64,000 nucleotides of DNA from Candidatus Kaiserbacteria bacterium (lineage in GTDB: Bacteria; Patescibacteriota; Minisyncoccia; Phycocordibacterales; UBA2100). The stretch spans positions 602,274 through 666,273 of the forward strand of contig CP066682.1 in the NCBI GenBank assembly GCA_016432285.1, given 5' to 3'. Each line of letters begins with the position of its first letter. Positions within the stretch are counted from its first letter, which is position 1. A model generated the notes under the pieces. The model ran no database searches. It worked only from the letters and a program-made list of their open reading frames with translations, and had not been told where the DNA came from. Shown here piece by piece: positions 4,034 through 17,774 of this stretch. A program made the translations under genes and the position numbers.

Positions 4034-4065
4034 TCTTCATTTTGCACGCACCGCTACCCTATCGA

Positions 4066-4713
4066 TCAACCCAGATGCGCGTGGTCGTTCCACACTTCGA
4101 GCACCCATTCCGACCGGGCCGTCTTATTCACTTCCCCACCGCGCGTCGCTACGGAGAGCGCCGTATTTTCGAGCTGTCCGAATCCGTTGATGACATGCCG
4201 ACACTCGTGCGAGGTCATTTCCTTGCCGAATAGAATGGCGGCCGCCACTACGTACATAAAGAAACCGTGGCTCACGACCAGAATGTTGCTCTCCGTTCGC
4301 TCTGCCAGAAAGTCGAGCGCTGCCAGTGCACGCATTTTCAAGTCTTCAAAATTTTCGCCGCCCGGGAATCTCCAACCGGGTTCGTCGAAACGATCCCACG
4401 ATTCCATGACGATTTTCCGCACCTCGGGATCATCATGATCTCTTCCGAGAATGACGGTCGCGGTTATTCGCTCCCGAAACAGCGCTGAAAACTCAGTCTT
4501 GAGATTTGTTCCTGCGACGATGTGGCCCGCGGTTTGTCGCGCACGCTCCATATCGCTCGCAACCACAACATCGATCGGAAGCTGCTGGCATCGCTTTGCA
4601 ATCTCGAGTGCCTGCGCCTCTCCCGCCTTCGAAAGCGGAGTGTCGATGTCGTTGTACTTGTGTGTGGCGTTATTGACACTCTCGCCGTGCCGCACGAAGT
4701 AAACGGTTTTCAT
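4066..4713 (-). CDS. histidine phosphatase superfamily protein (phosphoglycerate mutase-like)
   Basis: N-terminal VRHGES (RHG catalytic motif); 215 aa. Confidence 0.75.
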   Translation of the reverse strand: MKTVYFVRHGESVNNATHKYNDIDTPLSKAGEAQALEIAKRCQQLPIDVVVASDMERARQTAGHIVAGTNLKTEFSALFRERITATVILGRDHDDPEVRKIVMESWDRFDEPGWRFPGGENFEDLKMRALAALDFLAERTESNILVVSHGFFMYVVAAAILFGKEMTSHECRHVINGFGQLENTALSVATRGGEVNKTARSEWVLEVWNDHAHLG

Positions 4714-4715
4714 CG

Positions 4716-5954
4716 TTAGAGTACGAACTTCCCGTCTTTGTAGATCACTTTCATGGATCCGTCTTTAAGATGCGCAGTTACGGTCCGGCGCGTCGTCGAG
4801 ATCATGTCGGTGTGCACAGAGGAGTCGTTGAAGCCGAGCTTTTTAGCCTGCGCCTTTGTGAGCTTCGATACATCTCCAGAAAAGGTGTCTTTGTACGACA
4901 TGCCGACCGCGATGTGCGTGTTGCCAAAAGGTCCGCCCATGTTTTCGTCGAAGAGCGTCTCGGCCATGAACTTCGTGATCCGTGAGTGGCGACGATCAGT
5001 GAGCGAGTATTCGCCGATCTGATCCGCGCCGGGCGTCGCGACCATTTGTTTGAGGAGCTTCTCGTTGGTCTTGGCTGTGGCCTTCACCACTTTCCCCTTT
5101 TTGAACCACAGTTGAATGCCGGTAACCTTGCTGCCGTAGCGGTATAGCGGCTGGTTGAAGCGAATCCACCCTTCGGTGCCGCGCCAATCGGGCGAGGTGA
5201 AGATCTCGAAGCTTGGCATGTTGAAGCCGCGTCCCGCGAGCCATTGACGCTTTTCCCCGAGTGCGATCCACAAATCCATGTCGGGCCCTACGGCGTGCAG
5301 CCTGTCGATCTTCGGCGAGAGCTTGTTGAGCGCGAGCTTGTAGCGCTCGATCTCGCGATACACCTCCTTCCATTTTTTGATCGGATCTTTCTGATCCAAA
5401 AAACACGCCTTGATGATCTGGTTCCAGTATTCCTTTTCGGAAAGCCCCGCCTCTTTGGCCATGGCGGGCGTGCCGTACATGCCGAGCGTCCATGTGAACT
5501 TCCCTTTGTGCTGCTTTTCGTTGCGCCAGTCCATAAAAGGCTTCAGGGCAACGCCGCGGCGCATGATTTTTTTGGGGTCAATGCCATCGAGCGCGTGCAT
5601 ATCGGCGTCGGAGAGAATGAAGAGCGAGTGGTCTATCTGATCGATGAGGCCCTTGAGGTACTTCGCGGGGAAAAAGTCGAGCTGCTCGTCGCTCGCGTGT
5701 TCGTAGAAGTAGCGGGTGAAGCTCTCGTTGCGGCGCTTGTCGCCCTGTTCGTCGTCCGGCGAATAATGGCCGACCACGTGGCCGCCGGATTTGACGATGG
5801 CGTTGCAGATTGCGACGTAGAGCGGCTTACATGATTCGTTGCCCGAAACGCGCACGACGTCGCCCTTCCTGATCCCCTTGCCCATGTTGAGGGCGAAGTT
5901 TACGAGCACGTCGGCGTATCTTTCTAAAATTTTCCTGCTGGGTTTGTATGCCAT
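4716..5954 (-). CDS. M29-family aminopeptidase (AmpS/PepS, aminopeptidase T-like)
   Basis: 412 aa; N-terminal ERYADVLVNFALNMGKGxxKGDVVRV typical of the M29 family. Confidence 0.8.
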   Translation of the reverse strand: MAYKPSRKILERYADVLVNFALNMGKGIRKGDVVRVSGNESCKPLYVAICNAIVKSGGHVVGHYSPDDEQGDKRRNESFTRYFYEHASDEQLDFFPAKYLKGLIDQIDHSLFILSDADMHALDGIDPKKIMRRGVALKPFMDWRNEKQHKGKFTWTLGMYGTPAMAKEAGLSEKEYWNQIIKACFLDQKDPIKKWKEVYREIERYKLALNKLSPKIDRLHAVGPDMDLWIALGEKRQWLAGRGFNMPSFEIFTSPDWRGTEGWIRFNQPLYRYGSKVTGIQLWFKKGKVVKATAKTNEKLLKQMVATPGADQIGEYSLTDRRHSRITKFMAETLFDENMGGPFGNTHIAVGMSYKDTFSGDVSKLTKAQAKKLGFNDSSVHTDMISTTRRTVTAHLKDGSMKVIYKDGKFVL

Positions 5955-7138: not shown

Positions 7139-8632
7139 TCACTTGCCTGAGATTTCTCGTGCACGTTCGCGAATATCGATCGGGTATACCCCATTGAAAC
7201 AAGATGTCGAAAAATTCGATTCAGGGAGAGCTGTCGCGGCGATCATCCCTTCGTATGAAAGATACGTGAGCGACGTGGCGTCGAGATATGCTCTGATTTC
7301 TTCGATCGACTTTGTTGCAGCGATGAGATCGGTCTGTTTCGGCGTATCGATTCCGTAGAAATCCGGGAATCTTACCGGTGGCGACGAGACAAGAAAATGC
7401 ACTTCCTTCGCGCCTGCCTCGAAAAGCATCTCGACGATCTGGCGCGACGTGGTACCGCGCACGATCGAATCATCCATGACGGCGACACGCTTGCCGCGGA
7501 TCACGGAAGGAATCGGCGTGAGCTTGGCCTTTACCCCCTGCTCGCGCACATGCTGCTCGGGCGTGATGAATGTGCGATGGATGTATCTGTTTTTAGTGAG
7601 ACCCACTTCCATGGGGATTCCGGTCGCCTGCGAATAGCCAATGCTCGCGGGGATAGCGGTTTCAGGCACCGGAATTACCACATCAACGTCTGCTTTGTAT
7701 TCCTTGGCGAGCTGTCGACCGCTTTCCTTGCGCATGTCGTAGACCGACTTCCCCAAAAGCTCGCTGTCCGGGCGGGCGAAGTAGACGAACTCGAAGATGT
7801 CGAGCTTGAGGTTTGCGGGCACCACCTGCTCGCTCCGCAATCCTTGACTATCGATCACGACCATTTCCCCCGGATTGATCTCCCGCTCAAGCGTCGCGCC
7901 GATCGGCGGGAAGGCACAGGTCTCCGAGGCGATCACGTAGCCCCCATTGAGGCGCGCGAGCGCAAGCGGACGGATGCCGCACTGATCGCGCGCCGCCACG
8001 AGTGTGTCGTTGGACATGACGAGAATCGAAAACGCGCCGGTAAAGAGCGGGTACGAATCCTTCACCGCGCTCGGCAGATCCACTCCCTCGCGCATCCGCG
8101 CCGCGATTGCTTCCACCATCATGCGCGAATCGGAAAATTCCGACGGATCGATCCCCTTTCCGCGTAGGTACGCTTCGAGCTCCTTCGTGCTCGGGAGGTT
8201 GCCGTTGTGCGCGAGCGCGATCGCGCCGTCGTCCGGTCCGGAGGCGAGCGAGATCGAGTCGTTGAGGCTCGGATTCGGATCCTCGTAGAGCACCTTCTGA
8301 ATCGTGGTGGAGCCTGCCGCGAGCATGGGCTGCGCGTGCTTCACCTTGGAGCCACCGGTCGTCGAATAACGATTATGCGAGACCGCGAGGTGGCCCGGAA
8401 GACCTTTCAAAATGTCATCATTGAAAACCTGCGAGACGAGACCCATGCCCTTGTAGAGCGTGAGCGTATCGCCGTTGCTGGTGGCAATACCCGAGCTCTC
8501 CTGTCCGCGATGTTGGAGCGCGAAGAGTCCGAAGAAGGAGAGTCGCGCGACGTCGAGGCCCTTACCGTAGACCCCGAAGACCGCGCACTTTTCTCCGAGT
8601 TGCTCCATAGAGAAAGAGGGATTGTACCACAC
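7139..8632 (-). CDS. purF: amidophosphoribosyltransferase
   Basis: 497 aa; class-II glutamine amidotransferase N-terminal segment (CAVFGV) and PRTase domain. Confidence 0.9.
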   Translation of the reverse strand: MWYNPSFSMEQLGEKCAVFGVYGKGLDVARLSFFGLFALQHRGQESSGIATSNGDTLTLYKGMGLVSQVFNDDILKGLPGHLAVSHNRYSTTGGSKVKHAQPMLAAGSTTIQKVLYEDPNPSLNDSISLASGPDDGAIALAHNGNLPSTKELEAYLRGKGIDPSEFSDSRMMVEAIAARMREGVDLPSAVKDSYPLFTGAFSILVMSNDTLVAARDQCGIRPLALARLNGGYVIASETCAFPPIGATLEREINPGEMVVIDSQGLRSEQVVPANLKLDIFEFVYFARPDSELLGKSVYDMRKESGRQLAKEYKADVDVVIPVPETAIPASIGYSQATGIPMEVGLTKNRYIHRTFITPEQHVREQGVKAKLTPIPSVIRGKRVAVMDDSIVRGTTSRQIVEMLFEAGAKEVHFLVSSPPVRFPDFYGIDTPKQTDLIAATKSIEEIRAYLDATSLTYLSYEGMIAATALPESNFSTSCFNGVYPIDIRERAREISGK

Positions 8633-8656: not shown

Positions 8657-10048
8657 CTATGTACCTTTCTGGAGCGCCGCGATGCGGGCGCGGTACGTTG
8701 CGAGCGAGAGATTGCCGGGAGCCCCGAGCGATTGTTTGGTTGCTATGTTTTGCAAAAGGTCCACGCTTCCCGGATCCATGTCGGCCGCCTTCTTGTACGC
8801 ATCACGAAAAGGCATCCCCTCTTTTTGCACGAGGTCGTTGGCGATATCGGCGGTAAAAATACCGGAATTGATCTTGGCGCGGATGCTCTCGGGCTTCGGC
8901 GAGATGCCGGCCACAACGACCGTGGCCACCGCGAGACTGTCCTCGGCTATCTTCGTGCTCTCAAAGAGCGGCTTTTTTATGAGCTGTCCGTCTCTGTTGT
9001 AGCCGGAGAGGAGATTCTTCGCGATGTCTTTGACGATCAGCTGATTGCCGATTACGACAGACACGTTGCCGCGCATGATTTCAAGCGGATCGAGATTACG
9101 CTTATGCGGCATGATGCTAGAGCCAGTCGTGAGCGACGGATCGATCGCGAAAAAGTCGAACTCCTGCGAGGTGAAAAGCAGTAGATCGCCCGCAAACTTC
9201 CCGAGCGTGAGCATGACCTGCGCGAGAGCTTCCATGTACATGCTCTCAAATTTGCCGCGACCATTTTGGGCATACAGCGAATTGATCTGCACGGCGGAAA
9301 AGCCGAGCTCCCGCGTCGTGAATTCCCTATCGATCGGAATCGACGTGCCGAAGCCCGCGGCCGTGCCGAGCGGATTTTTATCGATGTGTGCGCGGACTCC
9401 CGCAAGGAAGCTGGCATCGTCGATGAGGCTTTCTGCGTACGCCGCGAAGTAGTGGCCCACGCTTGAGAGCATCGCTTGCTGCGTGTGCGAGTAGCCGGGC
9501 ATGGGCGCGTCTTTGTACTTCTCGGCCGCGTCGACGAATTTCGTGGCGAGCTCAAGCGCCAGCGTTTGTACACGTGCCAGGTGCGCCTTCATGTAGAGCC
9601 GCGTGGCTACGGCAACTTGGTCGTTCCTGCTTCTTCCGGTGTGGATCTTCTTGCCCGCCTCGCCGATTTTCTCGACGAGGTAATTTTCGATCACCGTGTG
9701 GCAATCTTCGTCCTCGGGTGTGATCGAGATAGCGCCTTTCTCTGCATCTTTTTCCAAATCAGAAAGAGCGCTCTCGATTGAAGCAAGCTCATCCTCCGAG
9801 AGTATGCCGATTTTCTGAAGGCCCTTCGCGTGAGCTAGCGACCCCTCTATATCGAAGGGCAAAAGCTCCACATCAAAAATGTAGTCGGTGCCCGCCGTGT
9901 ATTGCTCCACGACAGGATCGATCCGTGTATCTGTTTTTTTCCAAAGCTTAGCATAGTGCGGATAAGTATAACTCTTTATTGCTCCGTTTTTTCGGCAATA
10001 CGCGCTCTTGCCCCAGCCACAATCTCCGGAATGACGGTGGCATCCCAC
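8657..10048 (-). CDS. argH: argininosuccinate lyase (start codon uncertain)
   Basis: HTGRSRNDQVA and GSSIMPHKRN fumarate-lyase signatures; the conserved KLW N-terminus begins near 9955 where no in-frame ATG/GTG/TTG exists, so the ORF-derived start at 10048 is provisional. Confidence 0.85.
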   Translation of the reverse strand: MGCHRHSGDCGWGKSAYCRKNGAIKSYTYPHYAKLWKKTDTRIDPVVEQYTAGTDYIFDVELLPFDIEGSLAHAKGLQKIGILSEDELASIESALSDLEKDAEKGAISITPEDEDCHTVIENYLVEKIGEAGKKIHTGRSRNDQVAVATRLYMKAHLARVQTLALELATKFVDAAEKYKDAPMPGYSHTQQAMLSSVGHYFAAYAESLIDDASFLAGVRAHIDKNPLGTAAGFGTSIPIDREFTTRELGFSAVQINSLYAQNGRGKFESMYMEALAQVMLTLGKFAGDLLLFTSQEFDFFAIDPSLTTGSSIMPHKRNLDPLEIMRGNVSVVIGNQLIVKDIAKNLLSGYNRDGQLIKKPLFESTKIAEDSLAVATVVVAGISPKPESIRAKINSGIFTADIANDLVQKEGMPFRDAYKKAADMDPGSVDLLQNIATKQSLGAPGNLSLATYRARIAALQKGT

Positions 10049-10269
10049 GAGCCCTGGGCGAGCTTCTCCTCGTGGGCCTTGAGTTCTTCTTTCGTATACG
10101 CCCGCTGCACCATATGGAAATCATCCTCTGAACCGCTGAGGGCTTTTTTGAGGACTGGATATTCTATTTTTTTCTTTTCTTGAGTTTCAAAATTCATATG
10201 CGAGAGAAGTTGCAGGGACGGGTAATGAGTACGAATTACTCGTCCCTGCGTTTTTCGATTTTCCGCCAT
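9976..10269 (-). CDS. hypothetical small protein (uncertain)
   Basis: 97-aa ORF between the 67-aa ORF and argH; overlaps the provisional argH 5' end; no clear SD. Confidence 0.3.
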   Translation of the reverse strand: MAENRKTQGRVIRTHYPSLQLLSHMNFETQEKKKIEYPVLKKALSGSEDDFHMVQRAYTKEELKAHEEKLAQGSWDATVIPEIVAGARARIAEKTEQ

Positions 10270-10439
10270 GCTCCCATGAGCTCAAGCTCGAGCATGTCGG
10301 GATTGTGATCTGCGACGCCGTCCAGCCGTTGAAGCTCTTCGATCGTGCAGTGCGAGAGGAGGGTTTCAAGTTTCTCCTGCCGCTCCTTCAGTGCCCTCCG
10401 AAGCGACGGATAACCGTCGATCGGAAACTGAACCGACAT
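10236..10439 (-). CDS. hypothetical small protein (67 aa)
   Basis: Internal Met of the 10236..10487 ORF preceded by AAGGAG 9 nt upstream. Confidence 0.4.
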   Translation of the reverse strand: MSVQFPIDGYPSLRRALKERQEKLETLLSHCTIEELQRLDGVADHNPDMLELELMGAWRKIEKRRDE

Positions 10440-10518
10440 CGTCCATCTCCTTGTCGTTGTCGAGCAGTGCACGGGAGGGGTACGCAATACCTCACCCCTC
10501 CCGCTGCCAATGCCCGAA

Positions 10519-11550
10519 TTAGTTCCAGCAGATCTGTTTCTCAGGATAGCTGTCGATCTCCTGCTTGATCTGCTTCCTCACATTCCAGTAGAGATACTGC
10601 TCAGGCGGCCTCCAGCCGGAAGCCACCGCGCCGCTGAGGTCGTTGGTGAGACACGCTGCCGCACCGCCGCCGTCCCAGAACAAACGTGGGAGATTCAGCG
10701 GATGCACCTTGTAGCCATACTCCTTCAGGACCTTGGAGTAGTAGATCGACAGACCGTTCGGTGCGTACACGTGACCGTCGGGATCTTCCCGAATGTTGGT
10801 CGCGTAGCCGTAGCCATCTTTACTGGACACGCAGTGCAGTTGAGTCTGGCCCCTGTCACTCGTCGTCTCGGCGGAGACGAATTCCAGAAGTTGCTCGTAC
10901 GCGACGTCAGGATCCCAACCGCTGCCGTCTGCTTCCGCGAATGCGGAGCGGCAGACCACAACCAGCGGATCTCGAGTGGATAGCGACGCGAGAAGCGTAT
11001 CGAGATGAATGTGAGGCTCTTTCATCTTGATACGAACGACTGCGTGAGGATCGAGACCGAAGAGGTCGATGATCTCGTCGCAGGACGCTTCTTCGGCACG
11101 AACGCCATAGCCGAGAATGGCGAACGTCTTCTGCGGCGAGTGCCGCATGCACGACGATCCTTCCCACTTGCTCTTCGTTGAACCGGCGACCTTCAGACGA
11201 AGCTTCTTCTGAAGGAAGTGGCCGACGTATTCCGATTCATCGTGCCGGTGCGGGGCGCTATGGTTGGACAGCACGAAAGCTTTGAGCTTATCCGACCACG
11301 CGCCAGCATCCGCGGTATAGAGCTTGTCGAATGTCGTTTGCGGCTTTCTGCCGCAGGGCATGATGGCAAGATTTGCCTTGGAGGAGAGCTGATCGGCTGC
11401 GCCGAGCCACTCGTATCCTGCCTCACGAGGATTTGTGCCTCCGCGAAAGTTGTTGGCAACTACGCCGTATTCGGTGCCGTCCGCACGCCAACAATGTGGC
11501 GTGGGCGACATCAGGTAGGTAGGTCGCCTTGGATCGAATTTCTGTTTCAT
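10519..11550 (-). CDS. guanidino-group modifying enzyme superfamily hydrolase (agmatine deiminase / N-succinylarginine dihydrolase-like)
   Basis: 344 aa from Met with GAGG SD; HLDT motif and C-terminal FWDGGGAAACLTND resembling the GGGxxC catalytic-cysteine motif of AguA/PAD and especially GGGPACL of AstB. Confidence 0.6.
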   Translation of the reverse strand: MKQKFDPRRPTYLMSPTPHCWRADGTEYGVVANNFRGGTNPREAGYEWLGAADQLSSKANLAIMPCGRKPQTTFDKLYTADAGAWSDKLKAFVLSNHSAPHRHDESEYVGHFLQKKLRLKVAGSTKSKWEGSSCMRHSPQKTFAILGYGVRAEEASCDEIIDLFGLDPHAVVRIKMKEPHIHLDTLLASLSTRDPLVVVCRSAFAEADGSGWDPDVAYEQLLEFVSAETTSDRGQTQLHCVSSKDGYGYATNIREDPDGHVYAPNGLSIYYSKVLKEYGYKVHPLNLPRLFWDGGGAAACLTNDLSGAVASGWRPPEQYLYWNVRKQIKQEIDSYPEKQICWN

Positions 11551-11783
11551 TGCTGGCCTCTGCTTCTTGCGATGGTTGTTGGTGAATCCCGTCTGCCGTC
11601 CCGGCAAGGCGAGACAGTGGATCACGGTCCGTTGATTTCGGGCACTGTTTTGGTTGTACTCAAAGATCTTTTCACGGTCTCCTTCGTTGAGGCCGCTTTT
11701 GGAATGTTTGCGAACAAACGCTCTAAAGCAGTCTCAACAGAACTGCTTGTCGTCGAACCGAAAGACGTGCGAGAGTCGTCATA

Positions 11784-13049
11784 CTATTTTTTGCGCCTAT
11801 TTTTGCGTGCTATCTCATTTGCGATTTTCATCTGGAGCGTCGCCACTTCGATGAAGCCAGCCGACGCATTGACGTTGTACTTGTAGCCCTCCTTCACATT
11901 GAACGAAGCGTGGCCGAGCGCGTACGGCGAGTCGATCGCGACGACATTCGTGCTGCCCTTGAAAAGCTCCACTGTCACCTCCCCCTCCACCTTGGAGTTG
12001 ACCTCGTCGTTGAAGGCATTGATCGCATCCATGGCCGGGTCGTACCACTTGGCGCCGTAACAGAAGTAGCCCCACTTCACGTCGAGCTGCGATTTCACTT
12101 CGTTGAGATCGCGCGTGGATACGGCGCGCTCCAGCGCGCGGTGCGCCTCGATGATGATATGCGCGCCCGGCTGCTCGTACACGCCGCGGTCCTTGAGTCC
12201 AATCATGCGATCCTCGATCATGTAGACCACGCCGACGCCGTGCGCGCCGCCCGCGATATTGAGCTTCCTGATGATCTCGTGCAGCTCCATTTTTTTGCCG
12301 CCGAGCGAGACCGGCACGCCGCCTTTGAACTGGATTTTGACCAACGTCGATTTCGAAGGCGCGTTTTCTGGGCGCGTGTAGGTCGTGAGAAATTTCTTGA
12401 CCTGCGGGATCGACTTCGGGTTCTCCACCTCGCCGCCCTCCCACGTCATGCCCCACATATTGTCGTCCACCGAGTACGGGAAATCCTTTTTGACCGGCAC
12501 CGGGATCTTGTGCTTCAGGGCGTACGCGATCTCCTCCTTGCGGTCCATGTTCCACTCGCGCACGGGCGCAATGATTTTCATCGAGCTGTCGAGTGCGAGC
12601 ACGTAGCCGTCGAAGCGCACCTGGTCGTTGCCCTTCCCGGTACAGCCGTGAGCGATCACCTTGATGCCCTTCTGCTGCGCCACGCGCACACCTACCTTTG
12701 CGGTGAGCGCGCGCCCCAAGGGCGTGGAGAGGTGGTACTCGCCCTGATACGAGGCGTTGGCCTTGATGCCCTTGGCGATAAATTCGTCGGCAAATTCTTT
12801 CTTGGCGTCGTAGACGATCGCGTCCGCCGCGCCGAGTTTCAGCGCCTTCTTCCGGATGAAATCGAGGTCGTCCTGCTGCTGGCCGATGTCGAGCGTGAGG
12901 GCCGTCACCTTGGCACCGTAGCGATCTTGGAGCCACTTCAGCATCACCGAAGTGTCGAGACCGCCCGAATACAAAAGCAGCACCTTGTCGACATGGTCTT
13001 CCTTGACCTCGTACGAGGTTACTTTTTGATATGTCTGTGTTTTGTCCAT
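11784..13049 (-). CDS. argG: argininosuccinate synthase
   Basis: 421 aa from MDKTQ; LYSGGLDTSV PP-loop and type-1 ArgG body; ORF track extends upstream but the conserved N-terminus starts at 13049. Confidence 0.9.
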   Translation of the reverse strand: MDKTQTYQKVTSYEVKEDHVDKVLLLYSGGLDTSVMLKWLQDRYGAKVTALTLDIGQQQDDLDFIRKKALKLGAADAIVYDAKKEFADEFIAKGIKANASYQGEYHLSTPLGRALTAKVGVRVAQQKGIKVIAHGCTGKGNDQVRFDGYVLALDSSMKIIAPVREWNMDRKEEIAYALKHKIPVPVKKDFPYSVDDNMWGMTWEGGEVENPKSIPQVKKFLTTYTRPENAPSKSTLVKIQFKGGVPVSLGGKKMELHEIIRKLNIAGGAHGVGVVYMIEDRMIGLKDRGVYEQPGAHIIIEAHRALERAVSTRDLNEVKSQLDVKWGYFCYGAKWYDPAMDAINAFNDEVNSKVEGEVTVELFKGSTNVVAIDSPYALGHASFNVKEGYKYNVNASAGFIEVATLQMKIANEIARKNRRKK

Positions 13050-13160: not shown

Positions 13161-13329
13161 GCCTTCAGCCCGCATTCTCGACGAGTTTCTGGCCGAACTT
13201 GGCCTTCTCGACTTCCGAGGGCTTGAGCTTCGCGAACACATCGCGAACCGCATCCCCGAGATTCTTGTTGTCCGGATCAACGCGGACGCGTTGATCATGG
13301 ACAGTGAAGTCGTTCTTTGCTTCCGCCAT
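13161..13329 (-). CDS. hypothetical 55-aa protein (below ORF-track cutoff)
   Basis: ATG preceded by AGAGGAG SD at optimal spacing; sequence MAEAKNDFTVHDQRVRVDPDNKNLGDAVRDVFAKLKPSEVEKAKFGQKLVENAG. Confidence 0.4.
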
Positions 13330-13411
13330 TGCCTGCTCCTCTCTCGTTTAGACGTGGCTCACAGCGAACGAGTATTCGCTCCGAGCCGCGCCCAAACCTT
13401 TGTGTGCAAAG

Positions 13412-13447
13412 AACAACCGGCCTTGAGGCCGGTTGTTTGAGTTTATG
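13412..13447. terminator. strong hairpin (AACAACCGGCC-ttga-GGCCGGTTGTT) with U-rich tail on + strand
   Basis: perfect 11-bp stem; function unclear (5' UTR structure of the 55-aa ORF or + strand terminator). Confidence 0.35.
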
Positions 13448-13590
13448 GAGAGATAAACGCAAGCAAGCAGCCTCAAAGGGAGCCGGCTCGTCGTCGGAGT
13501 TGAATCGCCGATATAAGGTTGGCAATCCGAGTCATGCGGACACTTTACACTTCGCCACAATTTCGTCAAGGGATATGTCCGCCTGGGGTG

Positions 13591-13655: not shown

Positions 13656-14489
13656 TTATGGAACTTTTTTCAGAACGATGAACCACTCCCAAACGCGCGA
13701 CCCACCCCCTGGCACGGGACGGATAAAAACGTGGCACTCGCCGTAGCGAGGGATGAAGTAGACCACGCTCGGGAAGAATCCCTGCGTGTTCAGTTGTCCT
13801 GCAAGTACGCACGGGCCCAGATTGTCCACGATCGGACTCTTGAGGACCATGAGCACATCAAGACCTTCTTTCGGTGTCGCAACTTCGGCGCTTCTTTCCG
13901 AGCACCATTTCAGGAGTTCGTCTCGGGATAATCGCCGCCGAAAACGTACTGCCGTAGCCGTGAAGCGTTGTGTGCCTTTCCGATGATCTGGGAACTCGAT
14001 ATCAAAAGCCGACTCGGGGTCTCCCAGAATGAGTCGCAAGCGCTCTATCCGCTTAAGTTTCGAGGAGATCGATTCATCGTAGTCGATCACGTACTCCCCG
14101 AGTGCGATCTCAATGGGCGGACCGGGCTCGTTCAGCAGATCCATATATTCAGACTGAAGTAGGTTGCCGTCGTCGTCGTATGAGAGATCGAACCTCTTGC
14201 GGCATGATTTGCACACTGCATGCACCTCAGTGCTGACCGAGTCCGCATGAAAACGGAACTCGAACGGATGCGTGAACAAGAGCGCACGATCATTAGCCCG
14301 TCGACATGTCTTGAAGTGCTCTTTTGCAAGTTTTTCGAGCACAGTCATTTGTATCGCGTCGACGTGGAAGGTTTGCGGTTGCTTCCAGCCATGATTCGCC
14401 TCGGAGCCAAGTTGCTGAAAGGCGCGGTCCAGAGGGTCATGTTGGCCTTTTAGCGTGTATACATTGTCTTCAGTGCCATTCTCGGTCAT
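13656..14489 (-). CDS. hypothetical protein (277 aa) with Cys/His cluster
   Basis: HxxCKSCRKRF and KTCRR motifs suggest a possible metal site; no family recognised. Confidence 0.55.
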   Translation of the reverse strand: MTENGTEDNVYTLKGQHDPLDRAFQQLGSEANHGWKQPQTFHVDAIQMTVLEKLAKEHFKTCRRANDRALLFTHPFEFRFHADSVSTEVHAVCKSCRKRFDLSYDDDGNLLQSEYMDLLNEPGPPIEIALGEYVIDYDESISSKLKRIERLRLILGDPESAFDIEFPDHRKGTQRFTATAVRFRRRLSRDELLKWCSERSAEVATPKEGLDVLMVLKSPIVDNLGPCVLAGQLNTQGFFPSVVYFIPRYGECHVFIRPVPGGGSRVWEWFIVLKKVP

Positions 14490-14722: not shown

Positions 14723-15823
14723 ATGAAGGTCTGGAACGCTACCGAAAAGAGCGCCTCCCGGCAAGCGATTGCTGCCCTGGAGGGCGGAATTGGAATCTCG
14801 ACCGTCATGCAGGTTGATGGTGACGGGGGCTTTCGCATGTCACAGAATGGCCCCGGTATCTTCGAAATCACCTGCGAATCCACGTTGCCTCCGCTCGTTC
14901 TGACCGGCGGCATCCATGGCGACGAGAAGGCGGGGATCTCGATTCTCGACAGCCTGATCGACGACATCGTCAGCGGCAATCAGCGCGTCAAGCGCAGCGT
15001 GCTGCTGATGTTCGGAAATCTCCGTGCGATGCAGACCAACGGCTTCAAGGGTTGTCGCTGCATCGAAGACGAGGTCGGCGAGACCTCCAACCTCAATCGC
15101 TGCTTCGGCAGGGGCTACTTCGAAACCCCGCGCTGCTACGGCGAGCATCGGGCCAACGAAATGATGCGTGCTGTTGAAGACTTTGCGGACACCCATGGGT
15201 GCCCCGAAGTCATCGACATCCACCAGAGCTTCGCGGTGCCCACGCTTCGTGATGTGCGCGGCGGCGTCGCCGACCGGAGCGATTACACGTACGCAATGCT
15301 CTACCCGGTCGAGGACGATCTCGCGTCTGCTCTTGGCTGGATCCATGAGCAGTACAGCGACATCGTCGCAGGCGCCGTGGTCAACGACATGCAGCTCCGG
15401 CACCATACGTTTGCCGGCTACATGGCGTCGACATTCGGCTCTCGGGCGGCGACCTTCGAGCAGGGCAACATCGGGTACGTTGATCACTCGACGTTTACCC
15501 CCCAGCTCGAAGACAACCTCTCTCGCAAGATTGCGGGCGAGACGAAGCTCGACAAGATGGAAGGCTTCGACGTGTGGAGGTATCTTCGTCAAATCCGCAA
15601 GGAGACGAAGGACTTCACCTTCATCGACGACGAGGGCAACCGCACCAACGCCCCCCTCGACTTCCTTCCGTTGCCGGCCGGTCGCATCGCGCGGGACGGC
15701 CACCGGGAGCACGAGCTTCGGATGGGCGAGAGACTGCTCTTCGCCAACTCGACGGTCCCGATCGGGGACCGCGCGGCGGCAGTCATCGAACGGCTGCACA
15801 CGGACCTCGTGCCCGCTCCTTGA
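14723..15823 (+). CDS. succinylglutamate desuccinylase/aspartoacylase (AstE/AspA) family zinc hydrolase
   Basis: LTGGIHGDExAG signature (GxHGNE zinc-ligand motif variant); AAGGAG SD 9 nt upstream of MKVWN. Confidence 0.7.
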   Translation: MKVWNATEKSASRQAIAALEGGIGISTVMQVDGDGGFRMSQNGPGIFEITCESTLPPLVLTGGIHGDEKAGISILDSLIDDIVSGNQRVKRSVLLMFGNLRAMQTNGFKGCRCIEDEVGETSNLNRCFGRGYFETPRCYGEHRANEMMRAVEDFADTHGCPEVIDIHQSFAVPTLRDVRGGVADRSDYTYAMLYPVEDDLASALGWIHEQYSDIVAGAVVNDMQLRHHTFAGYMASTFGSRAATFEQGNIGYVDHSTFTPQLEDNLSRKIAGETKLDKMEGFDVWRYLRQIRKETKDFTFIDDEGNRTNAPLDFLPLPAGRIARDGHREHELRMGERLLFANSTVPIGDRAAAVIERLHTDLVPAP

Positions 15824-15936: not shown

Positions 15937-16707
15937 TCACTTTTTCTTTCGCGAGGCTTTTTCTTTAATGCCGGATTTCCCCTGCCGCTTTAAGAGTTCC
16001 GTCTCGACCATCGAGAGCGAGAGGCCGCTCGCGATGAGAAGAACCAGCAGGTGGTAGAGGAGATCAGCCGATTCGGCAATCAGCCGATCGGAAGTCTCGT
16101 GCGAAGCGGCCGCCATCACCTCCATGCCTTCCTCGCCTACCTTCTTCGCACAGTGCCTCACGCCCTTCGCGAGCAGTTGGCACGTGTACGATTCTTTAGA
16201 CGAGGTCTTCGCGCGCTTGCGGAGACGATGCTCGAGTTGCGAGAGATCCCACGTGACGTAGCCCCCGTTCTGCGGCGGCCCCAGTCGCGCGAGTCTCATA
16301 AACTTCTCGTTCACCTCCGCATTCACCGTCTGAAGCGCTTCCGCCTCGCCGGCTTTCGGCGCAGGAATGCCAAGATCGCGCCGGAGTGCCGAGCGATAGA
16401 AGCATGTCCGAGCGCCAGTGTGGCAGGCCACCCCTTCGCCTTTTTGCACGACGATATACACGACAGCGTCGCCATCGCAATCGATTTTGACGTCGATCAC
16501 CTCCATGACGTTGCCGCTTTCTTCCCCCTTCATCCAGATCTTCTTTCTCGAAGTAGAGAAGAAGTGGGCCTTGCCGGTCGCGAGCGTGAGGAGATATGCG
16601 ACCCGATCGACGTAAGCGATCATGAGGATTTCCTTCGTGATGCCATCCTGCACCGCCGCGGGTATGATTCCTCCTCGTTTCTCGAACTTTGGCATGTAGA
16701 TTTTCAT
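15937..16707 (-). CDS. hisIE: bifunctional phosphoribosyl-AMP cyclohydrolase / phosphoribosyl-ATP pyrophosphatase
   Basis: 256 aa; HisI body (DCDGDAVVY, GxACHTG) fused to HisE C-terminal region. Confidence 0.85.
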   Translation of the reverse strand: MKIYMPKFEKRGGIIPAAVQDGITKEILMIAYVDRVAYLLTLATGKAHFFSTSRKKIWMKGEESGNVMEVIDVKIDCDGDAVVYIVVQKGEGVACHTGARTCFYRSALRRDLGIPAPKAGEAEALQTVNAEVNEKFMRLARLGPPQNGGYVTWDLSQLEHRLRKRAKTSSKESYTCQLLAKGVRHCAKKVGEEGMEVMAAASHETSDRLIAESADLLYHLLVLLIASGLSLSMVETELLKRQGKSGIKEKASRKKK

Positions 16708-16788
16708 GGGATTCCTCCGTGTGGCTTCCGAGACGACGTCTCGGCAGCTCGGTGAGTGGTGTCCAGCGGGGAGAGTCCCCGCCGGATA

Positions 16789-17696
16789 TCAGATGATGGA
16801 ATGCGCATCCAGCTCGACGATGCCCGTTGCTCCAGCCTTCAAAAGCCGGAGCTTCAGAGCGGCGAGCCCTTCGAGCGGAACCACCGACGAGACGGCGTAA
16901 TCGCCGTTCGCCAAGCTCTGCATGGTGGGGCTCTCGATCGAGGGCAGGATCCGCACAATCTCGTCCAGCTTCTCACTCGGGACGTTCATCGTGAGGTAGC
17001 GCTTGTCGCGCGCCTCGATGGCCCCGAGCAGCAGCTTCGCGAGAAAGTCGACCGCCTCTTTCGCCTCCGGATTCGCGTACATCGCCCTATTGGCGATGAG
17101 AACGGTTTCAGACCGGAAGACAGTCGCAAGCTCCACGAGTCCGTTGACCTTGAGACTCGTCCCAGTTTCCACGAGCACGAGGCAGTAGTCGTACACGCCC
17201 GCAGCGACGAGCGATTCTGCACCGCCCGCGCACTTCAGGATCTTCGCCTTGATGCCCTGCTTCCGGCACCAGCGGCGCGCCGCTTTCGGATATTCGGCGA
17301 GAATGGTTTTCCCGCCGCGCCGCAAATCCTTGAGCGAAGGGCCGTTTCGTCTTCCGACGATCACGCCGCGGGTTCCGCCGTTGCTTGCCTTGCTGTATGC
17401 GAGGTTCGCAACGATCTTGAGGGACTTCCGTAATCCAGACTCGATGACTTGATCGAGCCCGGTGATCGCGGCGAGGATCACGCCGCTCTGCACATGCTCC
17501 GGTATCTCCGATGCCTTGAGCCGGAGGCACTGATCGAAGCCCGGCAGATCCTTGAACGTGCCGATGCAGGAGCGTGGATGAGAAAACTTCGGCCGGATGT
17601 TTGCTTTGCCGAAGATGTCCGTCGTCGGCTCCTCGATATTCTTGCCGCTCGGCCACCCGAATGTGCGCTTGGGATTGAGACGATTTCGCTTGGCCA
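16789..17696 (-). CDS. hisG: ATP phosphoribosyltransferase, long form
   Basis: LVETGTSLKVNGL catalytic motif plus C-terminal regulatory domain; AGAGGAGG SD before internal Met at 17696. Confidence 0.85.
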
Positions 17697-17774
17697 TGGG
17701 TATGACCTCCTCTTTTGTGTCGCGTGCGTGCGCGATCGATGTGAATGTGCACTCTCGCAAGCCTCGGGTTTACG

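Follow-up and report, generated by a model that had tools for sequence, protein, structure and literature searches.

An Arg-codon leader with classical attenuator layout precedes a gene for a guanidino-group-modifying-fold enzyme in the arginine cluster of Candidatus Kaiserbacteria

The window analysed here is the whole 64-kb stretch of DNA from a MAG of Candidatus Kaiserbacteria, a groundwater CPR bacterium. Its minus strand carries argG, a gene for an enzyme with the fold of the guanidino-group-modifying (GME) superfamily, two small ORFs and argH. The genes lie where the initial annotation had placed them, with small corrections to their limits, and the features of the locus are as follows.

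14723-15823, plus strand, opposite to the cluster: AstE/AspA-family metallo-deacylase, 366 aa
13542-13569, minus strand: promoter-like site TTGACG-16-TAAAGT, 9 of 12 matches
13473-13535, minus strand: leader ORF of attenuator 1, MTRIANLISAIQLRRRAGSL and stop, with three tandem Arg codons at 13488-13496
13408-13501, minus strand: attenuator 1 RNA, antiterminator hairpin and terminator (covariance model R1, fold)
13165-13329, minus strand: putative coding ORF of 54 aa with a GGAG Shine-Dalgarno, between attenuator 1 and argG
11784-13049, minus strand: argG, argininosuccinate synthase
11723-11782, minus strand: leader ORF of attenuator 2, MTTLARLSVRRQAVLLRLL and stop, with Arg codons CGACGA at 11750-11755
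11673-11748, minus strand: switch region of attenuator 2, with S0 (11742-11748), S1 (11726-11737), a conserved inner hairpin (11702-11723), S2 (11687-11698) and S3 (11673-11682)
11557-11642, minus strand: conserved 3' part of the leader, with H5 (CCCG..CGG, 11629-11642), H6 (11582-11625) and an SD-like AAGAAG (11557-11568)
10519-11550, minus strand: GME-superfamily Cys-His-Glu enzyme, 343 aa (profile, fold, alignment)
10473-10502, minus strand: 9-bp GC-rich hairpin, GGGAGGGGT..ACCCCTCCC, between the GME stop codon and small ORF A
10236-10439, minus strand: small ORF A, helical protein, 67 aa
10211-10250, minus strand: 16-bp hairpin across the stop codon of small ORF A, with a T-run on the opposite strand
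9976-10197, minus strand: small ORF B, four-helix protein, 73 aa, probable paralogue of A
8657 to about 9952/9954, minus strand: argH, argininosuccinate lyase

The argG product scored above the curated cut-offs of NCBIfam NF001770 (457.7 bits, cut-off 334) and TIGR00032 (426 bits, cut-off 268), and the argH product above that of TIGR00838 (330 bits, cut-off 279.5). The start of argH is anomalous, with the ATG at 9952-9954 one base out of frame relative to that of relatives. At the position of the 54-aa ORF, relatives hold unrelated or weakly related ORFs of 107-151 aa. OTC was not found in the 64-kb window by tblastn.

The embedding of the GME gene in the arginine cluster, which had been pointed out before, recurs in the contigs of relatives (loci with L numbers). 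The order argG-GME-small ORF A-small ORF B-(argF)-argH is kept across about 35-70% protein identity, including a clade that is ~35% identical (L019, L021), and the GME gene adjoins argG and/or argH in every contig long enough to show its neighbours; in L009 and L008 it adjoins an argF that precedes argH. The order in L005 and L007, GME-argG-argH, is that of the pathway proposed below. This arrangement is not due to chance, and the GME gene is a fixed member of a late arginine-pathway cluster. OTC is missing from the cluster in the window and in L005, L007, L019 and L021, and is present in about half of the lineages. Two forms that are not orthologous to each other (31% identity) occupy two distinct positions there, suggesting that OTC was recruited repeatedly. 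The L001-type OTC passes the TIGR00658 cut-off and is, among the named matches, 64-70% identical to Chloroflexi-named OTCs.

Downstream of the GME gene, GC-rich hairpins are also found in L021 and L005. Small ORF A, initially described as a 67-aa ORF with a good SD, holds up as coding; it has an AAGGAG Shine-Dalgarno, and relatives carry a small ORF at the same position. Small ORF B is real and conserved (tblastn to relatives, E 7e-22 to 4e-5), and is also found beside the divergent GME homologue in L019; the length of 97 aa first assigned to it was not upheld, since the start is most likely the ATG at 10197, giving 73 aa. The two small ORFs are probably paralogues, judging from their hhalign comparison (90%, E 1.7e-6), and their proteins may be partners or modulators of the GME enzyme.

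Between argG and the GME gene lies attenuator 2. The ATG of its leader ORF is 1 nt past the argG stop codon (TAGTATG), and the leader stop codon, TAG, sits within an invariant GCTTTAGAGC. All 10 distinct leaders before the GME gene carry RR, RGR, RVR, RTRER, RRTR or RRR, with the Arg codons located 3-14 codons before the stop (most 6-11), and the leader of L021 keeps its Arg codons (CGC CGT..CGC) despite nucleotides differing from the CGACGA found elsewhere. The S0:S1, S1:S2 and S2:S3 pairings are mutually exclusive, and their duplex energies are favourable in 10 of 10 versions. RNAalifold predicted 19 pairs, with 98.4% of the alignment cells paired and compensatory changes in three pairs, and none of 500 shuffles reached the observed score. 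The S1:S2 helix shows covariation, and the minimum-free-energy fold alternates between two conformers among the homologues. The covariance model matched attenuator 2 at 94.6 bits, a score obtained by construction, because this sequence is among the nine that built the model; no Rfam family matched it. The terminator of attenuator 2 in the window is weak (-9.5 kcal/mol, with a poor, degenerate U-tract); L007 and L015 have a canonical one with a U-tract in attenuator 2, as does attenuator 1 of the window.

Attenuator 1, before argG, matched the covariance model R1 at 33.6 bits (E 1.4e-6). Its terminator consists of AACCGGCCTCAAGGCCGGTT followed by GTTCTTT (13408-13434), and was matched by the terminator scan at 13431-13414. 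Homologous leaders end in SLRRRAASL (L001 and L013), QIRRRTASL (L021) and EIRRGSSL (L019). The promoter-like site ends 6 nt before this first leader ORF, which implies a leaderless transcript. By reading of the sequences, L001, L013 and L019 also have a TAnAnT-type -10 located 6-8 nt before the leader start, accompanied by a TTGACA-like -35 in L001 and L013; L019 has only a TATAAT -10. This promoter geometry is also found before the second leader in L023, L006, L008 and L007.

In total there are 15 distinct Arg-run leaders, 10 before the GME gene and five before argG, each a short translatable ORF with tandem cognate codons. Helices 1:2, 2:3 and 3:4 exclude one another, and the leader ORF stops within or close to segment 2. 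The GME gene thus comes first behind a conserved leader that has two or three Arg codons and classical attenuator layout, and such an Arg-codon leader attenuator of the arginine cluster is previously undescribed. Short ORFs with tandem codons of the regulated amino acid are shared with trpL, hisL and pheL-like attenuators and with orf34/SpeFL. The classical attenuators also have mutually exclusive 1:2, 2:3 and 3:4 helices with the stop codon within segment 2, a U-tract terminator (as in attenuator 1, L007 and L015) and a position upstream of genes for synthesis of the same amino acid. They differ from the Kaiserbacteria element, which uses Arg codons, is hosted by CPR bacteria and contains a highly conserved hairpin with an internal loop, located between its segments 2 and 3. 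In addition, the Kaiserbacteria cluster has two paralogous copies, one of them within the operon, where it is coupled translationally to the stop codon of argG, and a leaderless mRNA is implied for the copy at the head of the operon.

In classical trp/his-type attenuators, stalling at the regulatory codons raises downstream expression, and the same is reportedly true of the Salmonella speF leader ORF (orf34/SpeFL), which has two Arg codons. In the Kaiserbacteria leader, scarcity of charged tRNA-Arg would stall the ribosome on the tandem Arg codons, where it would cover S0; S1 could then pair with S2 as an antiterminator, and transcription would read into the genes from GME to argH. When arginine is plentiful, the ribosome would reach the stop codon inside S1 and the S2:S3 terminator would form. 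As the GME gene sits behind the Arg-codon attenuator, it would be induced under arginine scarcity if the classical mode applies, and we infer that cells short of arginine would produce the GME enzyme along with ArgG, ArgF and ArgH.

The GME enzyme is 100% identical to the NCBI hypothetical protein HYS26_03575 (Candidatus Kaiserbacteria MAG). The initial annotation was right in assigning an intact gene to the GME superfamily, although the length is 343 rather than 344 aa, and the motifs that it described are present as HIHLDT (180-185) and DGGGAAACLTN (293-303). The AF2 model (pLDDT 79.8, pTM 0.81) has the alpha/beta-propeller (pentein) fold. A Foldseek search with it against the PDB gave 92 matches at E <= 0.001, and the best 50 of the 92 were all GME enzymes, led by ArgZ/AgrE (E 2e-14, TM 0.65/0.82, the latter on target) and followed by DDAH, NnhA, AstB and agmatine deiminase. 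A C-terminal nucleophilic Cys, a His and an acidic residue form the catalytic triad, as C300, H182 and E130 are invariant across the family. In the profile alignment, C300 corresponds to ArgZ C264 and H182 to the histidine of the ArgZ HLDT, and E130 matches the glutamate of the ArgZ FEG by position. The other key residues, D75, D81, R102 and R151, are conserved too, in places where ArgZ has D65, N71 and two Arg. We propose that the ORF encodes an active cysteine hydrolase of the GME superfamily.

The initial annotation had allowed for a pseudogene or a protein of an unrelated family, but the fold is that of GME enzymes, the ORF is intact and the small ORFs are coding. A decayed, non-functional remnant, with the small ORFs and leader as non-coding chance features, would fit the GME gene of L007, which is broken into two parts (75 and 242 aa), and the start-codon frame problem of argH in the window. 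This explanation is nonetheless extremely improbable and already contradicted by the sequence conservation: the ORF is full length, 61 columns are invariant across 43-70% identity, all catalytic residues included, small ORF B is conserved at E 7e-22, and 15 copies of the leader show conservation together with covariation.

The GME family is tiny, with 9 proteins in 5.8 billion clusters and members in 2 of 185,579 species genomes. It appears to be restricted to Kaiserbacteria, and is proposed to branch next to ArgZ/AgrE and DDAH. In the Pfam and NCBIfam profile searches no curated family model was passed: the scores were 13.2 bits for DDAH_eukar PF19420 (cut-off 23), 27 bits for DDAH-Mtb NF045659 (cut-off 300) and 19.7 bits for Arg_dihydro NF052232 (cut-off 450), and NF052231 (ArgZ/AgrE) gave no match. 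The family HMMs of agmatine deiminase/PAD_porph and arcA did not match at E <= 0.1, and agmatine deiminases rank 42nd or lower by fold among the best 50 Foldseek matches.

By both profile (E 2e-11) and fold, the closest enzymes are ArgZ (Sll1336) and AgrE (Alr4995), arginine dihydrolases that act in the ornithine-ammonia cycle of cyanobacteria. They align with the GME enzyme at the GGAAxCLT cysteine motif and the HLDT histidine and agree with it in the positions of the FEG glutamate and of Asp/Arg/Arg, and both groups occur in genomes that also have OTC, ArgG and ArgH. In contrast to ArgZ/AgrE, the GME enzyme is only ~19% identical and lacks the fused C-terminal cyclodeaminase domain; it has instead a 40-residue C-terminal extension (GW..PP..YLY..R..YP) that is unique to the family, and its gene is inside a biosynthetic operon behind a putative arginine-starvation attenuator. 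The ArgZ motif TANAG aligns to TADAG, where Asp81 replaces ArgZ Asn71 in 8 of 8 members covering the site. DDAH and ADI, which hydrolyse in one step, have Asp at this position. In distant relatives, the residue found here is not cleanly related to which NCBIfam model scores best. According to the title of PDB entry 6juz, the N71S mutant of ArgZ traps a covalent intermediate.

The main rival explanation, which we consider possible but unlikely, is suggested by these closest relatives: an ArgZ-like arginine dihydrolase would convert arginine to ornithine, CO2 and 2 NH3, and would close an ornithine-ammonia-type cycle with OTC, ArgG and ArgH or, in a simpler variant, supply ornithine for polyamines. 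The two forms of OTC that about half of the lineages carry in the cluster are in line with this, as is the pyruvoyl ornithine decarboxylase of Kaiserbacteria (Km 56 uM), which indicates that these organisms use ornithine (PMC10407285). However, Asp81, the absent cyclodeaminase domain and the NF052232 score (20 against 450 bits) argue against it. Co-induction with argG and argH at low arginine would also destroy the product being made, and in the OTC-less clusters (the window, L005, L007, L019 and L021) the cycle would stay unclosed.

Asp81 could also be read as the state of one-step deiminases. An arginine deiminase analogue, forming citrulline and NH3 from arginine, would feed a catabolic OTC, whose products would be ornithine and carbamoyl phosphate, the latter for making ATP or pyrimidines; several lineages have an adjacent OTC, and CPR genomes often lack carbamoyl-phosphate synthase. 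With ArgG and ArgH, however, such an enzyme would create a futile aspartate-deaminating cycle costing ATP, and it would be induced by arginine starvation. Many clusters have no OTC, the L001-type OTC has the TIGR00658 match and Chloroflexi-named relatives described above, and the scanned parts of the window showed no carbamate kinase, so that this activity seems quite improbable.

An amidinotransferase seems improbable as well; it would transfer an amidino group from arginine onto an acceptor amine or, in reverse, from a guanidino donor onto ornithine. The fold and the Cys-His-acid triad are the same, clustering with ornithine-to-arginine enzymes would fit a loop in which ArgF, ArgG and ArgH regenerate arginine as the donor, and the C-terminal extension could shape a second substrate site. 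Against this, amidinotransferases (AGAT/StrB1 type) are absent from the Pfam/NCBIfam HMM matches and from the best 50 Foldseek matches, the loop needs the OTC that many clusters lack, and no acceptor-related genes are conserved nearby.

The enzyme had been described as closest to AstB, and this had to be revised in favour of ArgZ/AgrE. AstB has the superfamily fold and the GGG..C motif in common with the GME enzyme, and an AstE-family gene is nearby, but an N2-acylated substrate is disfavoured by the residues that the GME enzyme retains and that should bind a free alpha-amino group. AstB identity was rejected, as hhalign of the family profile with E. coli AstB gave a probability of 1.7%, AstB ranked 28th by fold, and AstB PF04996 was not matched in the Pfam/NCBIfam searches.

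An ArgE or AstE-like deacylase is divergent beside the arginine cluster. The pairing with an AstE-family gene noted initially is supported by L023, where an orthologue with 63% identity is immediately divergent from the GME gene, but its reading as part of the AST pathway is not, since L006 has ArgE in the same position (TIGR01892, 316 bits, above the cut-off). In L008 this position holds a truncated M20 homologue (64.6% identical, 260 bits, below the 297.7 cut-off). Because ArgE/M20 proteins fill the same divergent slot, the AstE-like protein seems to stand in, as a positional analogue, for an N-acyl-ornithine deacylase. It reaches 87-100 bits, where the cut-offs are 170-306. No astA, astC or astD was present in the loci whose gene tables were read, or matched among the approximately half of the window's ORFs scanned by profile.

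DDAH (human DDAH-1, P. aeruginosa DDAH and the M. tuberculosis type NF045659) is the second-best fold group (E 1e-11), and the weak best Pfam and NCBIfam matches are both DDAH models. The Cys-His-acid triad matches. In DDAH, two Asp six residues apart bind the alpha-amino and guanidino groups and two Arg bind the carboxylate; the D-x5-D pair (D75 and D81) and R102 and R151 of the GME enzyme are their presumed equivalents. A one-step hydrolysis that yields citrulline would suit the ArgG/ArgH context. The GME enzyme differs from DDAH in its 12-14% identity, in passing none of the cut-offs of PF19420, NF045658, NF045659 and NF045660, and in its EGSS loop instead of EGGD.

Our preferred reading, to which we give a probability of roughly 40%, is that the GME enzyme is a citrulline-forming, DDAH-like salvage hydrolase feeding ArgG and ArgH. 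The substrate would be a free amino acid of the L-arginine type but not arginine, such as an N-omega-substituted arginine like those that DDAH uses. Cys300 would attack its guanidino carbon, an amine would leave, and water would resolve the thiouronium intermediate to give citrulline. ArgG and ArgH would then convert citrulline to arginine, providing a salvage entry into arginine synthesis. This is favoured because the attenuator would induce the enzyme when arginine is scarce, and in the OTC-less clusters a citrulline-forming step would give ArgG its substrate. Against it, ArgZ and AgrE, the closest relatives with solved structures, use arginine as their substrate, no curated model is passed, and the terminator of attenuator 2 is weak in the window. 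Of the substrate cycle or salvage route suggested in the initial annotation, salvage therefore gains from the induction at low arginine that the attenuator implies, and the cycle is disfavoured. If the attenuator is classical, a rare GME enzyme would feed arginine synthesis rather than degrade arginine.

The late-arginine gene series of the window spans 8.6-13.6 kb on the minus strand in the order argG-GME-A-B-argH-purF, where GME is the gene of a protein assigned to the guanidino-group-modifying superfamily and A and B are small ORFs. This is the order common among the homologous loci on other contigs (L001-L023), minus argF.

11784-13049, minus strand: argG (NF001770, 457.7 bits against a cut-off of 334)
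10519-11550, minus strand: GME ORF, 343 aa
10236-10439, minus strand: small ORF A, 67 aa
9976-10197, minus strand: small ORF B, 73 aa
8657-~9952, minus strand: argH (TIGR00838, 330 bits against a cut-off of 279.5)

The initial annotation had its coordinates right, and its GME ORF and second small ORF are both real, with sizes corrected here from 344 to 343 aa and from 97 to 73 aa, respectively. A Candidatus Kaiserbacteria MAG encodes the same GME protein with 100% identity, annotated as 'hypothetical protein HYS26_03575', which places the window in the Candidate Phyla Radiation (CPR; Parcubacteria). Pfam scans detected no arginine-related genes among 20 other ORFs of the window.

At the position homologous to the start of argH in relatives (window 9930-9960, minus strand) there is no in-frame start; relatives read ATGGCAAAGCTTTGGAAAAAAAC and the window ATGCTAAGCTTTGGAAAAAAAC, one base short, and the ATG frame is offset by -1 from the argH frame over an A7 run (A_AAA_AAA). 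Candidate explanations are an error of assembly, a genuine frameshift, slippage on the A7 run and the use of GTG 10048 as start, which would overlap small ORF B. The small ORF A stop is covered by a perfect 16-bp hairpin (10211-10250) with a T-run on the plus strand; no gene is apparent on that strand here. Directly 3' of the GME stop there is a GC-rich hairpin (window 10473-10502, L021 ~4040-4075 and L005 ~5560-5595), a possible intra-operonic partial terminator or mRNA-stability element.

The GME protein scored below the cut-offs of Pfam DDAH_eukar (E 0.05, 13 bits, cut-off 23), the NCBIfam M. tuberculosis-type dimethylargininase (27 bits, cut-off 300) and the NCBIfam arginine dihydrolase (20 bits, cut-off 450). 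Among all PDB sequences, the family profile matches only ArgZ (Sll1336, 2e-11) and AgrE (Alr4995, 6e-9), which were also the best Foldseek match (E 2e-14, TM 0.65/0.82) of the AlphaFold2 model (pLDDT 79.8, pTM 0.81), followed by DDAH-1, NnhA, AstB and the agmatine deiminases in that order. The profile and predicted-fold matches to ArgZ/AgrE indicate that the GME protein is a true member of the superfamily, as originally assigned. The accompanying proposal that it is closest to AstB did not hold, as the protein has a low fold rank for AstB, no HMM match and an hhalign probability of 1.7% against E. coli AstB.

The family alignment has 61 invariant columns. C300 (DGGGAAACLTN) aligns to ArgZ C264, H182 (HIHLDT) to the HLDT histidine and E130 (WEGSS) to the FEG glutamate, and D75, R102 and R151 align to DDAH/ArgZ residues which we take to bind a free amino acid through its alpha-amino and alpha-carboxylate groups. 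Where ArgZ has Asn71 (TANAG), however, every member of the GME family covering the site has Asp81 (TADAG), and DDAH and ADI, which hydrolyse in one step, likewise have Asp at this position. The ArgZ N71S mutant has been deposited in the PDB as 'covalently bound to a reaction intermediate'. Distant relatives, none of which attains a curated cut-off, carry at position 81 either Asn (YTANAG, with a GKGGGGPRC motif) or Glu (YTAEAG). In L007 (3092-4066) a frameshift or a read error breaks the GME gene into two ORFs, 75 and 242 aa long.

Because the residues for binding a free alpha-amino acid have been retained and Asp replaces the Asn characteristic of the ArgZ dihydrolase, the enzyme may be a DDAH-like hydrolase that converts an arginine-type amino acid other than arginine to citrulline, a reading to which we give a probability of roughly 40%. 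Its main rival, possible but unlikely, is an ArgZ-like dihydrolase closing an ornithine-ammonia-type cycle or supplying ornithine; this would suit the ornithine decarboxylase of Kaiserbacteria, with a Km of 56 uM (PMC10407285), but would have to operate with Asp81 in place of Asn71.

The family is very small. Among 5.8 billion clusters, a word-indexed search retrieved 9 GME-family proteins; among 1.84 billion representatives, an exhaustive profile search retrieved 13 at E <= 1e-30; and scans found 2 loci in 185,579 species genomes and 4 in JGI metagenomes. Members with a name come from Kaiserbacteria, apart from one MAG that bears the label Saccharibacteria. The GME gene accompanies late arginine genes in all contigs whose length reveals its neighbours, in the following arrangements.

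L001-L004, L014, L016: argG-GME-A-B-argF-argH-purF
L006: argE, divergent GME-A-B-argH-argF-purF
L008: truncated M20 ArgE homologue, divergent GME-A-B-argF
L009, L013: (argG)-GME-A-B-argF-(GIY-YIG)-argH
L023: argG, hypothetical gene, AstE-like gene, divergent GME-B-argF-argH
L019: argG-GME-B-argH
L021: argG-GME-argH
L005, L007: GME-argG-argH

The GME proteins of L019 and L021 are only ~35% identical to that of the window, and the core association over the whole divergence of the family is GME with argG and argH, the argF product (OTC) being optional. No OTC was detectable by tblastn in the 64-kb window, and the 859-kb contig bearing HYS26_03575 carries none of the 120 closest OTC relatives, which is suggestive of OTC being missing from this genome. 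Where OTC is present in GME clusters it has two forms, 31% identical and at two different positions, after argH in L006 (5405-6352) and before argH in L001 (9779-10723). Many OTCs share 64-70% identity with the L001/L009 type, and those among them that have a name are mostly from Chloroflexi. The low identity, the differing positions and the Chloroflexi-type match suggest that the two types were acquired independently, one of them probably by horizontal transfer.

The divergent neighbour of the GME operon also varies. In L006 it is ArgE (723-2006, TIGR01892 316 bits against 297.7) and in L008 a truncated M20 homologue (641-1666, TIGR01892 260 bits), and the same divergent place is taken in L023 by an AstE-like gene (1699-2811), whose product shares 63% identity with its AstE-like counterpart in the window (14723-15823, plus strand); the latter is 26% identical to E. 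coli AstE. As they share this place, the ArgE-type and AstE-like deacylases look like positional analogues, and the alternation of M20 ArgE and AstE/AspA deacylase beside the GME operon looks like non-orthologous displacement. Two further features lie on this side of the cluster. A 277-aa ORF (13656-14489, minus strand) between the AstE-like gene and the attenuator upstream of argG had no Pfam or NCBIfam match and no counterpart in related loci. The hisIE and hisG genes (15937-17760, minus strand) adjoin a TrpR/YerC-like gene and form an insertion relative to the syntenic L001/L014 region, which is without them.

The 233 nt from the argG stop to the GME start (11551-11783, minus strand) are conserved as DNA among loci with only 35-70% protein identity. 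This region, attenuator 2, contains a leader ORF which ends at an invariant TAG within GCTTTAGAGC and encodes the following peptides.

Window: MTTLARLSVRRQAVLLRLL, stop; ATG 1 nt past the argG stop
L001: ...TMRGRAAQLGLL, stop
L023: MTRISRISAPGSIRRAAHLGLL, stop
L010: ...VRVRAAHLGLL, stop
L013: MQTNSTHIVRRQVASLRLL, stop
L006: ...FRTRERAISLRLL, stop
L019: MSMEKIMIYHNSRRTAASLRLL, stop
L021: MNYFPLTNEALRRTRSLLRPL, stop
L008: MQIGASAQGFRGRAASR, stop
L007: MKLNPVQVSIRRRTASHLRLFVSA, stop

The Arg codons of L021 read CGC CGT ACT CGC, as against CGACGA elsewhere; their retention with different nucleotides suggests that it is the codons, not the nucleotides, that are under selection. Two copies of a palindrome, TTCCATATATGRAA, occur in L001 (~7730-7800) and L010 (~1320-1390), where they encode TSIYES and SSIYGT; being located inside the leader ORF, they were rejected as operators.

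Directly 3' of the Arg codons are four segments (S0-S3) with alternative pairings, all of them favourable in 10/10 versions: S0:S1 (-7 to -16 kcal/mol), S1:S2 (-15 to -20 kcal/mol) and S2:S3 (-7.5 to -17 kcal/mol). The minimum-free-energy fold of single sequences flips between two conformers among homologues. The S1:S2 hairpin is 98.4% paired, with compensatory changes in 3 pairs and a terminal loop of 4 to 25 nt, and its score was matched by none of 500 shuffles. L007 and L015 have a textbook terminator as their S2:S3, CGGCCUC..GAGGCCG then UUUUUCGUU; in the window this helix is weak and its U-tract poor, and two further conserved hairpins follow 3'. L005 retains only a 3' remnant of the terminator (GAGGTCGTTTTTCGTT). 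In L023, L006, L008 and L007, GME is first in an operon of its own, and only 6-7 nt separate the end of a TTGACA-16-TAnAnT promoter from the start codon of the leader, so the leader mRNA would be leaderless there. A T-box or riboswitch was set aside, as the conserved translatable Arg-codon ORF and three alternative helices explain the region.

A covariance model built from this element found a second, paralogous copy upstream of argG, attenuator 1 (window 13408-13501, E 1.4e-6), which is also present upstream of argG in L001, L013, L019 and L021.

13542-13569, minus strand: attenuator 1 promoter, TTGACG-16-TAAAGT
13473-13535, minus strand: attenuator 1 leader, MTRIANLISAIQLRRRAGSL, stop
13408-13434, minus strand: attenuator 1 canonical terminator, AACCGGCCTCAAGGCCGGTT then GTTCTTT

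Neither element matches any Rfam family, and at E <= 10 the leader of attenuator 2 gave chance matches only. Read from their sequences, both have the anatomy of a classical ribosome-mediated attenuator with arginine as the putative sensed amino acid. By stalling at the Arg codons, a ribosome would cover S0, allowing S1:S2 to form and blocking the terminator, while a ribosome reaching the stop codon in S1 would leave S2 free to pair with S3. From this geometry, the classical attenuators and the leader ORF with Arg codons reportedly described for Salmonella speF, taken as precedent for the sign of regulation, we infer induction at low arginine. The element is a new variant of the classical mechanism and, as far as could be found, no leader-peptide attenuator had been proposed before for genes of arginine biosynthesis or for the CPR. 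The GME enzyme represents a subfamily that is new and very rare within a known superfamily, and its biosynthetic, arginine-attenuated setting is unexpected.

The GME gene thereby appears to be induced along with argG, argF and argH when arginine is scarce, which would make an arginine-destroying deiminase or dihydrolase counter-productive. This weighs further against the ArgZ-like dihydrolase. It also makes an arginine deiminase improbable, as arginine would be destroyed just when scarce and the enzyme would form, with ArgG and ArgH, an ATP-wasting, aspartate-deaminating loop. An amidinotransferase is about as improbable as a deiminase. The initial annotation had envisaged a substrate cycle or a salvage route, and under arginine-scarcity induction it is salvage that is more likely, the cycle being disfavoured. 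The favoured DDAH-like hydrolase would act in one step on, for example, an N-omega-substituted arginine, and its citrulline could serve as the ArgG substrate in clusters without OTC.

Small protein B is conserved (tblastn E 7e-22 to 4e-5 against relatives), and is kept even beside the divergent GME homologue of L019. A is more variable, yet conserved in position, and the two are probable paralogues (hhalign 90%). B is predicted to be a four-helix protein (pLDDT 80.7) and has no relative in Pfam, NCBIfam, PDB sequences or PDB folds. Both are absent from L005, L007 and L021, therefore neither is indispensable. A LysW-like carrier role was rejected, as there is no conserved C-terminal Glu and there are no zinc-finger cysteines. 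It is conceivable, but very improbable, that the GME enzyme, possibly with A and B, provides a carbamoyl-phosphate-independent route to citrulline that replaces or bypasses OTC in the genome-reduced Kaiserbacteria; if true, the route would be previously unknown, and the arginine pathway would here have a new variant, controlled by an arginine-sensing attenuator of its own.

Two things here are testable: the GME family, which numbers about a dozen sequence clusters and has a clear candidate chemistry, and the compact Arg-codon attenuator, with two copies per cluster. To our knowledge, all characterised enzymes of the GME fold whose substrates are free arginine-type amino acids are hydrolases of catabolic or regulatory function. 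In this case, an enzyme of the fold is encoded by a conserved gene of an arginine biosynthetic operon and is apparently induced by arginine starvation. The amino-acid economy of CPR bacteria with their hosts is poorly understood, and the GME enzyme, if this is true, would represent an unrecognised salvage or bypass entry into CPR arginine synthesis.
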